In this document: positions 213-40,468 of the stretch, in pieces | Layout of the letters: the number at the start of each line of letters is the position of its first letter | Numbering within the stretch: the first letter of the stretch is position 1 | DNA from: an uncultured Candidatus Marinamargulisbacteria bacterium | Lineage (GTDB): Bacteria; Margulisbacteria; Marinamargulisbacteria; GCA-2716485; CAXFGY01 | Assembly: GCA_964002605.1 (NCBI GenBank) | Contig: CAXFGY010000001.1 | Location: 1-43,101 of the forward strand | Reading direction: 5' to 3' | DNA length: 43,101 nucleotides | Notes under the pieces: generated by a model | Told to the model about the DNA's origin: nothing | Seen by the model: only the letters and a program-made list of their open reading frames with translations | Database searches by the model: none | Translations under genes and position numbers: made by a program

Positions 213-354
213 GGCGATGTCGCGAAATGCCTAATCTTTACAATTTTCACCTTCGTTATGGTGCGCTGCAGCACTTCCTCAGGCGATAAATTGCAAATCT
301 TATGACTTTGGCGACATCGCATTCAATCAGTTTTTTCTGTTTTGCGGCAGTCCC
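213..354 (+). repeat. Copy A of the ~141-nt TIR repeat family (no clear target-site duplication)
   Basis: Aligns along its full length with copies at 31281, 31458, 31944 and, in reverse, 39743 and 5126. Shared blocks are GTCGCGAAATGCCTAATCTTTACAATTTTCACC, CAGGCGATAAATTGCAAATCTTATG and TTTGGCGACATCGC, with a ...TTTTGCGGCAGTCC 3' end. The predicted ORF 74..322(-) only reflects this nucleotide repeat. Confidence 0.8.
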
Positions 355-4975: not shown

Positions 4976-5062
4976 TGGTGGAGGGAGCTGGATTTGAACC
5001 AACGTAGAGCAAAGCTCGGCAGATTTACAGTCTGCTGCGATTGACCACTCCGCCATCCCTCC
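4976..5062 (-). tRNA. tRNA-Tyr (anticodon GTA), long variable arm, CCA encoded
   Basis: The reverse complement reads GGAGGGATGGCGGAGTGGTCAATCGCAGCAGACTGTAAATCTGCCGAGCTTTGCTCTACGTTGGTTCAAATCCAGCTCCCTCCACCA. Anticodon stem GCAGA/TCTGC with loop CTGTAAA, and T-loop TTCAAAT. Confidence 0.93.
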
Positions 5063-5125: not shown

Positions 5126-5268
5126 AGAATTGTTGCAAAATAAAAAAATCTGATTTTATTACAATGTCAGTAAAGATCTAAGCTTTCCAATTGATCAACT
5201 AATCCAGTATAACAAAGCGATATAAGCAGGACGAAAATACTGCAAATTAGACATTTCTCGACAGCGCC
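5126..5268 (-). repeat. Copy E of the ~141-nt repeat family (degenerate, reverse orientation)
   Basis: Collinear with copy D. GAATTGTTGCAAAATA matches GGATTGTCGCAAAATA, AGCGATATAAGCAGG matches AGCGATATAACGAAGG, and AGACATTTCTCGACAGCGCC matches AGGCATTTCGCGACAGAGCC. Flanks are GAGAT and TAGAT (4/5 duplication). Confidence 0.7.
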
Positions 5269-5859: not shown

Positions 5860-5935
5860 TGGTGGAGCTAAGCGGGATCGAACCGCTGACCCCTTGGCTG
5901 CCAGCCAAGTGCTCTCCCAGCTGAGCTATAGCCCC
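5860..5935 (-). tRNA. tRNA-Ala (anticodon GGC), CCA encoded
   Basis: The reverse complement reads GGGGCTATAGCTCAGCTGGGAGAGCACTTGGCTGGCAGCCAAGGGGTCAGCGGTTCGATCCCGCTTAGCTCCACCA. It has the G3:U70 Ala identity pair and anticodon loop CTGGCAG. Confidence 0.95.
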
Positions 5936-31280: not shown

Positions 31281-31421
31281 GGCTCTGTTGCGAAATGTTT
31301 AATCTTCACAATTTTCACCTTGATTATGTAGCGTAGCACCACTTCCTCAGGCGATAAATTGCAAACCTTGTGCCTTTGGCGACATCGCAATCGATCGAAT
31401 TTTCTATTTTGTGACAGTCCT
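31281..31421 (+). mobile_element. Copy B of the ~141-nt TIR element, flanked by TATAT/TATAT
   Basis: Ends are GGCTCTGTTGCGAAATG...CTATTTTGTGACAGTCCT. The 5-bp direct duplication is at 31276..31280 and 31422..31426. ORF 31184..31390(-) is an artefact of the repeat. Confidence 0.85.
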
Positions 31422-31457: not shown

Positions 31458-31598
31458 GGTATTGTCTTAAAATGACTAATCTACACAGTTTTGGTTTTTG
31501 TTATAGTGCACGGTACCATCGAATCAAGGAATAAATTATATATCTTAGACCTTTAGAGATATCGTAATAGATCAAATTTTTTTATTTTACACCACGCC
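31458..31598 (+). repeat. Copy B' of the repeat family (degenerate, about 65-70% identical)
   Basis: GGTATTGTCTTAAAATGACTAATCTACACAGTTTT matches GGCTCTGTCGCGAAAATGCCTAAGCTTTACAATTTT. GGAATAAATTATATATCTTAGACCTTT matches GGCGATAAATTGCAAATCTGATGCGTTT. The 3' 44 nt match copy C at 31/44. Confidence 0.7.
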
Positions 31599-31943: not shown

Positions 31944-32086
31944 GGCTCTGTCGCGAAAATGCCTAAGCTTTACAATTTTTACCTTCATTATGTCGTTCTG
32001 AGCCACTGCTTCAGGCGATAAATTGCAAATCTGATGCGTTTGGCGACATCGTAATCGATCGGTTTTTTCTATTTTGCGACAGGCCT
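31944..32086 (+). mobile_element. Copy C of the ~141-nt TIR element, flanked by TTATT/TTATT (best-preserved copy)
   Basis: The 5' GGC-T-CTGTCGC-G-AAAAT pairs with the 3' ATTTT-GCGACAG-GCC(T), giving 15 bp with two bulges. The duplication is at 31939..31943 and 32087..32091. The copy lies about 100 nt upstream of the 527-aa ORF. Confidence 0.88.
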
Positions 32087-33835: not shown

Positions 33836-35050
33836 ATGACTAAAAATAATAATGCCAAACGATCTAAAAAACGTAAAGTAATACGGATTAAAAACTTATT
33901 GCAACAAGAGGTTAAACCACAGCCTATTTCTCCTAAACTGACAGAAAAGGATAAAGATGTCTCTATTATAGATGAGCAACTATCTTATGATCAAATCTTA
34001 ACAAAGCATCACACTCAAGCAAAAGGAGAAATTGAACTTTTAAGACAAAATACTTTAGCTGAGTTAGAGCAAGTTCGTAAAAACCGGTTAAATGATATAG
34101 AGAATGAAGTTCAAGTTAAGTTACAACAAGGCTATGAAGATGGATACAGTAAAGGATATCAAGAGGGACAAACGAAGTTAGAGGGGGTGGCTAATGAGTT
34201 TTTAGGAATGCTTAATCAAGCGGTGGAAGAAAAAAACAACATTTTAAATTCAGCAGGTCAAGACTTACTCAATTTAAGTTTTAAGGTAGCCGAAAAAATT
34301 ATTCAAACTCAGTTAAATCAAAATTCAACTATATTTAAAAATATATTAGAAGAGGCGATTAGTCAGGTGACAGAAAAAGATAAAGTCTTAATTAGAGTAA
34401 GTCAGGCAGATTTTGAAGCGATTCAAAGTTATCGTTCTGAACTTGAAATAAAGTTTAAAGATATCAAGCAGTTGGATATCACTGCAGATTCAGATATTGC
34501 TGTTGGGGGATGCATTATAGAAACAAAGCTAGGATATATTGACTCTAGCATAGCAACAAAAAAAGAATTAATTCAACGGGCTTTTACAACGCTCTATCAT
34601 GAAATTGATCATCCAGATACAGCCGCTAACCACCAAAAAACAGATACAGATACGCTTTCTGACCCCTCCCTTGCCAATACGCCAGCTACTGAGTTGGATG
34701 ACAACACGGTGTTTGAAGAATCAGAGCGAACTGAAACAGAAGATACGATTAGTGATAGTGCAATGGATGAGGTGATTTCTGAAGAAGGGACGTTAGTTGA
34801 ACCGGACGACATGATAGTGGATAGTGCAATGGATGAGGTTATTTCTGAAGAAGAGACGTTAATTGAATCGGATGACATGATAGCGGATAGTGCAATGGAT
34901 GAGGTGATTTCTGAAGAAGAGACGTTAATTGAACCGGATGACATGATAGCGGATAGTGCAATAGATGAGGTGGTTTCCGAAGAAGGTGCGCTCACTGAAG
35001 AGGATGATGTTAAAATAGAGGAACTGGATGATTTGTCGTTTGAGGATTAA
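33836..35050 (+). CDS. fliH: FliH/SctL-like export-ATPase regulator with acidic repeat C-terminal extension
   Basis: FliH core QQGYEDGYSKGYQEGQTK...LNLSFKVAEKIIQ...VLIRVSQADFEAI...DIAVGGCIIETKLGYIDSSIATK, directly upstream of the ATPase gene. Confidence 0.75.
   Translation: MTKNNNAKRSKKRKVIRIKNLLQQEVKPQPISPKLTEKDKDVSIIDEQLSYDQILTKHHTQAKGEIELLRQNTLAELEQVRKNRLNDIENEVQVKLQQGYEDGYSKGYQEGQTKLEGVANEFLGMLNQAVEEKNNILNSAGQDLLNLSFKVAEKIIQTQLNQNSTIFKNILEEAISQVTEKDKVLIRVSQADFEAIQSYRSELEIKFKDIKQLDITADSDIAVGGCIIETKLGYIDSSIATKKELIQRAFTTLYHEIDHPDTAANHQKTDTDTLSDPSLANTPATELDDNTVFEESERTETEDTISDSAMDEVISEEGTLVEPDDMIVDSAMDEVISEEETLIESDDMIADSAMDEVISEEETLIEPDDMIADSAIDEVVSEEGALTEEDDVKIEELDDLSFED
34754..35010 (+). 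repeat. About 3.9 tandem copies of a 66-nt (22-aa) in-frame acidic repeat inside fliH
   Basis: The unit GATAGTGCAATGGATGAGGTGATTTCTGAAGAAG... starts at 34754, 34820, 34886 and 34952. The encoded unit is DSAMDEVISEE(G/E)TL(V/I)E(P/S)DDMI(V/A). Confidence 0.9.
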
Positions 35051-38223: not shown

Positions 38224-39684
38224 TTGGTAAGTATTAAACAAATTATATTTGGAATAATATATTTTTTTCCAGTTTTTCTTTTCTCTGAGCCGTTGGACTA
38301 TGAACCAGGCACATTATTGATTAAATTAAAGCAAACGTCTACAACAGAAGTTGCAAATTCTAGTTTAAAAAATAATGAGATTAAAAAAGCAATTTCCGCA
38401 TTAAATCGAAAATGGGAGGCAAAAGAGAAAGACTTAGTATTGAAAAATATTATTACGACAATTTATTCGCGCTTGGTCAACTTTAATTTACAAGATAATC
38501 AAGAGGTTGTTAAAGTTTTATCGTTTCCTAGAATGTTTGATTTAGACGAAATTAAACAGGATTATCAAGCTTCAGGTTTGGTCACTGAAGTAGAATATAA
38601 TTATTATGTTTATAAGCAACAACAATCTTTTCCAATTTCTTCTTTTCAATATCATCTGATGCATTACTCTTTAAAAAGCACTCCAGTTTTGCAAAGTGAT
38701 GTTCAAATTCCAGTTGCTATTATTGATACTGGGGTTGATATTACCCATCCTAACTTGAGAGATGCAATTTATATCAACAGTCAAGAAGTTCCATTTAATA
38801 ATATTGACGATGATAATAATGGGTATATTGATGATTACCGGGGAATTTCATTTTTAGGGTATTCAGCTCAAGAAGCCTATTCCGTTGACGTTACTGATAC
38901 CCATGGGCATGGAACACATATTGCAGGCATTATAGCGGCGCAATCAGTAAATAGTGATGGCGTTTGGGGTCTTAATCCACAGGCAAAAATTATGCCAGTG
39001 AAATTTATGGATAGTACGGGTAAAGGAACACAGTTAGATGCAGCAATGGCAATTCGATATGCAGTAGATATGGGAGCAAAAGTGATTAATTGTAGTTGGG
39101 GGTATTTTAAAAAAACATCCGTTTTAGAAGATGCAATTAATTATGCAGTTAAAAAAGGCGTTATTATTGTTAGTGCAATGGGCAATAGTAATACCTATAT
39201 TCCAGAGTATCCAAGCGCTTTTGAATCGGTTTTATCTGTAGGTGCTGTTTCTCCAGTACTGCAACGATCGGAATATTCTAATTATGGGAGTCATTTAGAT
39301 TTCGTTACTTTTGGGAACGATATTTATAGTACATTACCAGGAAAAAGCTATGGGGCATTATCGGGAACGTCTCAAGCTACTGCAATTGTTTCAGGGGTGG
39401 TATCTCGTTTACTATCCTTGTATCCAGCAATGACCTATTTAGGTGTATATGAAATGCTTAAAAACAATGCGTTAGATTTAGGAGCAGAAGAATATGATCA
39501 GTACAATGGATATGGCTTGGTGCAAGTCGATGGAATGCTATTAGAGCTAAATGAGACGGTACCAAGTTATAATATTAGTGTTATTTCAGAGACATCAACT
39601 AATACAACGCCCGTGCCATATTTAAAGTATATAGGTATTGTTTTGGGCGTAGTAACTGCTATTTTAGTTGGAATAGCACTATAA
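38224..39684 (+). CDS. Subtilisin-like serine protease (peptidase S8) with N-terminal propeptide and C-terminal TM anchor
   Basis: Catalytic triad motifs AIIDTGVD, HGHGTHIAGI and LSGTSQATAIVSG. C-terminal hydrophobic helix IGIVLGVVTAILVGIAL. TTG start. Confidence 0.9.
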   Translation: MVSIKQIIFGIIYFFPVFLFSEPLDYEPGTLLIKLKQTSTTEVANSSLKNNEIKKAISALNRKWEAKEKDLVLKNIITTIYSRLVNFNLQDNQEVVKVLSFPRMFDLDEIKQDYQASGLVTEVEYNYYVYKQQQSFPISSFQYHLMHYSLKSTPVLQSDVQIPVAIIDTGVDITHPNLRDAIYINSQEVPFNNIDDDNNGYIDDYRGISFLGYSAQEAYSVDVTDTHGHGTHIAGIIAAQSVNSDGVWGLNPQAKIMPVKFMDSTGKGTQLDAAMAIRYAVDMGAKVINCSWGYFKKTSVLEDAINYAVKKGVIIVSAMGNSNTYIPEYPSAFESVLSVGAVSPVLQRSEYSNYGSHLDFVTFGNDIYSTLPGKSYGALSGTSQATAIVSGVVSRLLSLYPAMTYLGVYEMLKNNALDLGAEEYDQYNGYGLVQVDGMLLELNETVPSYNISVISETSTNTTPVPYLKYIGIVLGVVTAILVGIAL

Positions 39685-39742
39685 TAGTCAGCGAAGATTT
39701 AATGTGAGGGATATTTTTTAATTACAACAGGGTATGTTTAAT

Positions 39743-39884
39743 AGGATTGTCGCAAAATAGACAAATTCAATCGATTTTGATGTCCCAAAAGGCATAAGAT
39801 TTGCAATTTATCGCATAAAGCAGAGGGACAGAGCGATATAACGAAGGTAAAAATTGTGAAGATTAGGCATTTCGCGACAGAGCC
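39743..39884 (-). mobile_element. Copy D of the ~141-nt TIR element (inverted), flanked by TTAAT/TTAAT, inserted in the 3' end of rdgB
   Basis: The reverse complement aligns end to end with copy C. The duplication is at 39738..39742 and 39885..39889. The element supplies the last six codons (ALSRNA) and the stop of rdgB. Confidence 0.88.
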
Positions 39885-40468
39885 TTAATGATAGCAGTTG
39901 CTTTTTTTAATGCTTTAGTACGGTGGCTAATTTTATTTTTAACTTTATACCCTAACTCTGCTAATGTTTGGCTATAATGGGTTGGTATGAAAATAGGGTC
40001 ATAACCAAATCCAGAATTACCTGAAAGTGTTTGTGTAATGTGACCAGAAATCTTACCGGATACGGTGATGATGGGTTGGTTTGGACGTTTTAACGCAATA
40101 ACACAAATAAGTTGTGCCTTACGACTCGCTTTATCTTTAAGCTCATTTAACAATAGTTGACATCGTTGCATATCGCTTAAGTTTTCACCACCATAACGTG
40201 CGGAGTGTATTCCTGGACGGTTATTCAATGACTCCACTTCAAGACCAGAGTCGTCGGATAGAATAATTGCATTTTGGGTTTGAGAGATCTGAGGAAGGGC
40301 CATGATTTTTTTCACTGCATTTGATTTAAAACTATCCCCATCTTCTACAATAGTTAAGGGTTGTTTTATTATGTCTTGATAAGAAAAAATTTGGTTTGAA
40401 TATGATGATAAAATGGTTTTAATTTCTTTAATTTTGTAAGTATTATTAGTAACGAGAATAATTTTCAT
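39863..40468 (-). CDS. rdgB: dITP/XTP pyrophosphatase (RdgB/HAM1 family)
   Basis: MKIILVTNN..K..E, DDSGLEV, SARY and FGYDPIF motifs. The C-terminal tail is encoded by repeat copy D. Confidence 0.9.
   Translation of the reverse strand: MKIILVTNNTYKIKEIKTILSSYSNQIFSYQDIIKQPLTIVEDGDSFKSNAVKKIMALPQISQTQNAIILSDDSGLEVESLNNRPGIHSARYGGENLSDMQRCQLLLNELKDKASRKAQLICVIALKRPNQPIITVSGKISGHITQTLSGNSGFGYDPIFIPTHYSQTLAELGYKVKNKISHRTKALKKATAIIKALSRNA

Follow-up and report, generated by a model that had tools for sequence, protein, structure and literature searches.

Probable insertion of a miniature transposable element into the last codons of rdgB in an uncultured Marinamargulisbacteria bacterium

The present end of the rdgB gene in this bacterium appears to derive from a small transposable element. 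With a probability of about 0.85, a MITE has inserted into the last codons of rdgB with duplication of TTAAT, and the gene now ends on a TAA codon of the element. The evidence comes from the window, i.e., the whole stretch of 43,101 nucleotides that was analysed, and from marine metagenome contigs carrying the same family of elements. The features around the 3' end of rdgB are the following:

38224 to 39684, plus strand: gene of an S8 subtilase with a C-terminal transmembrane anchor (PF00082, E = 3e-52), convergent with rdgB
39722 to 39737, minus strand: putative relic of the old rdgB 3' end, consisting of the third base of the K codon and CAT ACC CTG TTG TAA
39738 to 39742: distal copy of the target-site duplication, TTAAT on the plus strand and ATTAA on the rdgB strand
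39743 to 39884, minus strand: element copy D, 142 bp (nhmmer E = 2.3e-39 against the 15-copy family HMM)
39743 to 39760, minus strand: 3' terminal inverted repeat of copy D, element positions about 125-142
39867 to 39884, minus strand: 5' terminal inverted repeat of copy D, element positions 1-18
39863 to 39865, minus strand: present rdgB stop codon TAA, element positions 20-22
39885 to 39889: copy of the target-site duplication inside rdgB, TTAAT on the plus strand, encoding part of I195 and K196
39863 to 40468, minus strand: rdgB, 201 aa, dITP/XTP pyrophosphatase of the Ham1 family

Copy D begins with GGCTCTGTCGCGAAATGCCTAATC at 39884 and finishes with GCGACAATCCT at 39743, its closing letters being TTTTGCGACAATCCT; the stop codon of the S8 subtilase sits 58 nt ahead of it. 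The last 22 nt of rdgB (39863-39884) are element sequence and provide the final base of K196, the residues ALSRNA and the stop. In the ORF translation, the product ends today in KKATAIIKALSRNA, also written ISHRTKALKKATAIIKALSRNA, i.e., in IIKALSRNA followed by the stop. Deletion of copy D together with one TTAAT, joining 39890 to 39742, gives ATC ATT AAA CAT ACC CTG TTG TAA and thereby a protein of 199 aa that ends in IIKHTLL, with its stop at 39722-39724. The first-pass annotation had described this pair of pentamers and this excision product, and both are exact to the base. The relic downstream of the ATTAA pentamer reads ACATACCCTGTTGTAA, and the empty site expected from the reconstruction would read ATCATTAAACATACCCTGTTGTAA. 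The same annotation had located the stop codon inside the 5' inverted repeat; the TAA is indeed carried by the element, in the conserved terminal block GCCTAATC of the 22-copy alignment, but it lies 2 nt beyond the pairing of roughly 17-18 nt.

The element belongs to a dispersed family. A family HMM was built from 15 full copies and run with nhmmer on the window and on metagenome contigs, and a scan of metagenome contigs with the conserved core pattern led to 21 marine contigs. About 32 distinct sites were found with the HMM in the window and these 21 contigs. The copies measure 138-145 bp, are devoid of a transposase gene, and contain no ORF with a start codon; nothing points to independent translation of a frame that is open across the consensus. 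The window holds four good copies (A-D) and two degenerate ones, which, besides copy D, are:

213 to 354, plus strand: copy A, no target duplication (0/5)
5128 to 5268, minus strand: degenerate copy between two tRNA genes (4979-5062 and 5863-5935), nhmmer E = 1e-14
31281 to 31421, plus strand: copy B, target duplication TATAT
31462 to 31593, plus strand: degenerate copy, nhmmer E = 1.2e-13
31944 to 32086, plus strand: copy C, target duplication TTATT

Pairwise identity among copies ranges from 71 to 90%, and copy D, with 85% identity to the consensus, ranks among the more diverged ones. The terminal inverted repeat is imperfect and about 17 nt long, GGCTCTGTCGCGAAATG pairing with the terminal TTTTGCGACAGTCCC; the pairing joins columns 6-18 to columns 138-149 of the 22-copy alignment. 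Small size (below about 300 bp), inverted repeats, a duplication of fixed length, and many dispersed copies are the traits by which the family is classed as a bacterial MITE, i.e., a non-autonomous DNA transposon. In the probable source run, word depth is about 7 in the flanks and 40-1300 inside the element, where contigs break; the summed word depth fits many copies but does not represent a copy number. The family consensus contains 46% G+C, compared with 33% for the host window. At L094:8327-8397 and L114:646-719, mini-derivatives of about 75 nt lack the interior of the element, their 5' inverted repeat being joined directly to the last ~55 nt. Tandem or nested arrays with up to four HMM matches back to back are found at L104:107-494 and L103:1230-1419, which suggests copies inserted into copies.

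The footprint of the family was analysed in 20 full-length copies. At the boundaries defined by copy D, a perfect 5-bp duplication is present in nine of the 20, and four of the five positions match in six more. When flanks were paired with mismatched partners, perfect matches fell to 0.8% and 4-of-5 matches to 7.6%; windows shifted by 5, 10, and 15 nt gave no perfect match, and 0, 3, and 0 matches of four in five, respectively. The nine perfect duplications are ATTAA (twice), TATAT, TTATT, GTAAT, AATTT, TTGTT, ACTTT, and CTTAT. Given this rule and its controls, the TTAAT pair around copy D is the normal footprint of the family and no chance repeat. The insertion into the last codons of rdgB, already proposed in the first-pass annotation, is backed by a family-wide 5-bp duplication, about 32 dispersed sites, and exact frames.

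The point of insertion, at I195/K196, is located past the last conserved helix of the RdgB fold. The Ham1 domain (PF01725) covers residues 3-191 with E = 2.1e-55 and profile positions 1-184 of 186 in Pfam, and alignments with solved RdgB structures stop at residue 194, the best match being 4bnq (E = 3.4e-36). The protein is a full-length Ham1 enzyme including the C-terminal SHR motif, whose S181, H182, and R183 do not vary among the aligned orthologues. RdgB homologues normally measure 193-206 aa, a range that includes the reconstructed 199 aa. In the alignment of eight orthologues, the tails after the conserved I-I/L comprise 3-25 residues and share no common motif. The exchange of about four residues for six in the tail was probably neutral, since the insertion lies past the conserved fold and orthologue tails are hypervariable.

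The following course of events can be proposed. A transposase supplied in trans and making 5-bp staggered cuts at AT-rich pentamers would have moved copy D into the pentamer ATTAA that spans codons I195/K196, about four codons before the original rdgB stop. Translation would then run from the duplicated pentamer into the 5' end of the element and terminate at the conserved TAA after six codons, and a tail of roughly HTLL would have been replaced by ALSRNA. This probably neutral change would have survived and become fixed, while the old last codons and stop would persist as an untranslated relic in the spacer between the element and the convergent S8 gene. A partner transposase gene would be flanked by the inverted-repeat sequence GGCTCTGTCGCGAAAT and its complement; Tn3-family or other DDE enzymes generating 5-bp duplications would be candidates. 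The search for an autonomous partner, i.e., an isolated repeat pair flanking an ORF, found none in the window and the metagenome loci searched; in those loci its sole yield was a pair of mini-copies of about 75 nt with internal deletions.

The allele with the insertion also occurs outside the window. The segment 39600-40000 of the window is 100% identical over 400 bp, non-coding DNA included, in three metagenome assemblies (L090, L091, and L092), obtained singly from TARA, ENA, and JGI, which come from different samples. The allele is therefore present in four independent assemblies when the window is counted. The insertion appears to be fixed in every population sampled here (the window and the three metagenome assemblies), and the source marine population appears to be very clonal. 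Its presence in every assembly and sample reached indicates that the insertion is old. The skip joint 39742/39890 was not found in eight public DNA runs, in which junction coverage was about zero outside the source run. An exact look-up among about 15 billion proteins did not retrieve the reconstructed 199-aa protein, and the 90% identity cluster of the 201-aa RdgB has a single member. In the metatranscriptome, one strandless contig of 167 nt, at depth 2, covers 39570-39732 and stops short of the element.

Among 5.8 billion proteins, the closest RdgB orthologues are 65% and 49% identical. The former has the tail AAVIIQQYNSKIT and is followed by secG, and the ORF of the latter runs into tRNA-Tyr; both have unrelated tails, are too distant for the HTLL tail to be judged by them, and lie before a different downstream gene. 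Two resemblances to the rdgB ends, KKLSHNT in P0003 to KALSRNA and LKHL before the stop in P0006 to IKHTLL, are due to chance and cancel out. In the 49% relative, rdgB has no stop before tRNA-Tyr(GTA) and reads 38 nt into the tRNA gene (L086:3749-3835), a further case of a free-running RdgB tail, and its KKLSHNT tail is encoded by unrelated DNA entering that gene. At the other end of the same gene, a 5' 118-nt family copy (L086:2987-3118) begins 1 nt past the relA stop, and the called rdgB (P0003, 261 aa; L086:3001-3786) has about 42 extra N-terminal residues, starting with MPNLINFRLSYLAPL, in the frame of the element. The true start of P0003 is probably MNIVVMSNN at about 3124. This relA-rdgB junction is filled in L086 and consists of a spacer of only 14-16 nt in the window and in L081, although the genomes are very distant; the window and L081 would be natural empty sites for the L086 copy. 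Representative genomes of GTDB gave 0 matches for the core pattern of the family and 0 for the 24-nt inverted-repeat pattern; RelA relatives in these genomes reach 37-38% identity at most. For ribosomal protein S2, the closest MAGs/SAGs are labelled Rickettsiales (67%) and Candidatus Marinamargulisbacteria (62-66%).

If the insertion model holds, HTLL before the stop would be the ancestral tail, its exact letters being deduced from the reconstruction. The open continuation gives it no independent support, because a short one is expected by chance at 33% G+C. An unlikely variant of the model accepts the insertion and denies that HTLL was ancestral: the relic may have drifted, a small deletion or rearrangement may have occurred, or the old stop may have been elsewhere. 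Drift is conceivable since copy D is old, as its 85% identity to the consensus and its place among the more diverged copies indicate, and the 15-nt relic is unselected; the occurrence of the allele in every assembly and sample reached also fits an old event, and no HTLL-like end exists among the eight orthologues aligned, where tails are hypervariable. However, a 5-bp duplication that has stayed perfect speaks against heavy decay at the junction, and the reconstructed length falls within the range of homologues.

A second question concerns the association of the family with gene ends. The consensus was translated from both ends in three frames each, with the following results:

5' entry, frame offset 0: open across all 47 codons
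5' entry, frame offset 1: stop after 6 codons (ALSRNA and stop)
5' entry, frame offset 2: stop after 24 codons
3' entry, frame offset 0: stop after 32 codons
3' entry, frame offset 1: stop after 17 codons
3' entry, frame offset 2: open across all 46 codons

An early stop occurs in only one of the six entry frames, so that termination of incoming translation is not a built-in property of the element; copy D represents a lucky, or surviving, frame. The first-pass annotation had stated that the in-frame stop lets the element land in gene termini without destroying them. This was over-stated with respect to the frames, yet several other genes do end at or inside copies. At least seven such real genes, Pfam-verified, were found:

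L112:1837-2760, minus strand: SAM methyltransferase (PF10672, E = 4.8e-31), ending in W-LLNT on the same TAA
L103:1369-1914, minus strand: metallophosphoesterase (Metallophos_2, E = 2.6e-24), with a 16-aa element-encoded tail, GSVVKCLIFTIFTFVM
L098: CCA-adding/poly(A) polymerase, its stop TA-G completed by the first base of the element
L102: MazG, TAA within a TTAAT duplication
L108: cupin, stop abutting the element
L097: RuvC, stop abutting a truncated copy
L086 (the 49% relative): relA, copy beginning 1 nt past the stop

In the copy on L112, the 5' inverted repeat is about 5 nt shorter, and the methyltransferase stops at CC-TAA-TC as rdgB does. The tail of the metallophosphoesterase is hydrophobic and comes from the open frame of an element fragment, and its stop is a TAG formed where a second copy nests in the first.

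These cases raise the possibility, considered improbable here, that the association is targeted, through stop-containing AT-rich pentamers, or functional, the element being kept as a 3'-UTR module (terminator, RNA stabiliser, or insulator) with its invariant TAA as a selected safety stop. In a crude automated count restricted to ORFs of 100 aa or more, 8 of 32 sites fall between -15 and +5 nt relative to a stop, where 12.5% would be expected (binomial P = 0.04); hand curation adds copy D, L112, and L098, and seven of the ORFs are Pfam-verified. All 22 aligned copies carry the TAA at element positions 20-22 unchanged, and two of the perfect duplications are ATTAA, which itself contains TAA. The enrichment at gene stops is suggestive only, being weak and partly post hoc, and purifying selection alone would leave the same pattern; in a compact genome with 33% G+C, such selection and the preference for AT-rich pentamers suffice to account for it. 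The invariance of the TAA is shared by 39 further columns, and the early stop in a single frame also speaks against this reading. A scan of the region for promoters and terminators gave nothing above the shuffled background, and no terminator-like site was seen. For the 22 copies, RNAalifold returned -5.68 kcal/mol with a covariation term of -0.26 and a double change in one of 28 pairs, and Rfam has no match for the element. A structured RNA element, also considered, is not supported, given the weak consensus fold (-5.7 kcal/mol), essentially no covariation, and the missing Rfam match; the element behaves as DNA. If targeting or retention were nevertheless true, housekeeping genes of a streamlined marine bacterium would routinely receive stops and short C-terminal tails from the family, the genes with such donated ends here being those of RdgB, the SAM methyltransferase, and the metallophosphoesterase.

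That no insertion took place, the TTAAT pair being a chance repeat and ALSRNA the native end of rdgB, is hardly credible, and the family alignment in effect refutes it. In its favour, DNA with 33% G+C abounds in short AT-rich repeats, and the 49% relative ends in the superficially similar KKLSHNT. However, the tail codons of rdgB form the conserved end of a repeat family with dispersed copies, the tail of the relative comes from unrelated DNA running into tRNA-Tyr, and at these boundaries chance would produce a perfect 5-mer in about 0.8% of cases.

The insertion of a MITE at a gene terminus, as favoured here for rdgB, is an ordinary kind of event. The Correia elements of Neisseria, the RUP of pneumococcus, and the RPE of Rickettsia are classical bacterial MITEs, which resemble the rdgB element in size, terminal inverted repeats, high copy number, and frequent location beside or inside genes. 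To our knowledge, none of them shares sequence with the present family. In Correia and RUP elements the duplication is TA instead of 5 bp, which excludes them. RPEs are known for their in-frame survival inside coding sequences; they are inserted in frame within genes, whereas the rdgB element replaces the gene terminus.

A direct precedent for such an event has been published. The amidase gene ECA3499 carries at its 3' end, past the conserved domain, a fused enterobacterial RU-1/ERIC (IRU) repeat of about 127 bp; the gene has lost its normal stop and terminates at one within the repeat (Delihas 2007, PMC2759123). As in rdgB, a small non-coding repeat supplies the protein end and the stop, but the two cases are unrelated in sequence and host, the RU tails, at about 35 aa, are longer, and neither a 5-bp duplication nor a reconstructable empty site is reported for those cases (PMC2759123). 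The TIMEs, non-autonomous miniature elements derived from Tn3, enter A+T-rich DNA and generate 5-bp AT-rich direct repeats, e.g., AAATT and AATAT, as Tn3-family transposons do (Szuplewska et al. 2014, PMC4133298). Their duplication has the same length and composition as that of the rdgB element, whereas their inverted repeats comprise about 38-40 bp matching Tn3-family transposons, against only about 17 in the rdgB element (PMC4133298). A blastn search of a plasmid collection detected no DNA similarity to the element. Membership in the TIMEs is not supported, because the inverted repeats are short, the search brought up no Tn3-like partner, and none of the plasmid records resembles the element. 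The stretch GGCTCTGTCGC of the element may resemble the start of a Tn3 repeat.

The case of rdgB offers a base-resolved example in which the final codons and stop of an essential-type housekeeping gene would have been harmlessly rewritten by a miniature transposon. It is one more case of a known phenomenon and opens no new question; the only thread that could lead beyond the ordinary is how often copies are placed precisely at stop codons. Tails encoded by the element are taken over by gene callers, as for RdgB here, and likewise the N-terminal extension of RdgB in a relative, and the family HMM would flag artefactual or chimeric termini in the annotation of uncultured marine genomes. Elsewhere in the window, a repeat scan (family D2) revealed three or four tandem 66-nt repeats, 81-82% identical, at 34714-34977 in a FliH-like gene.
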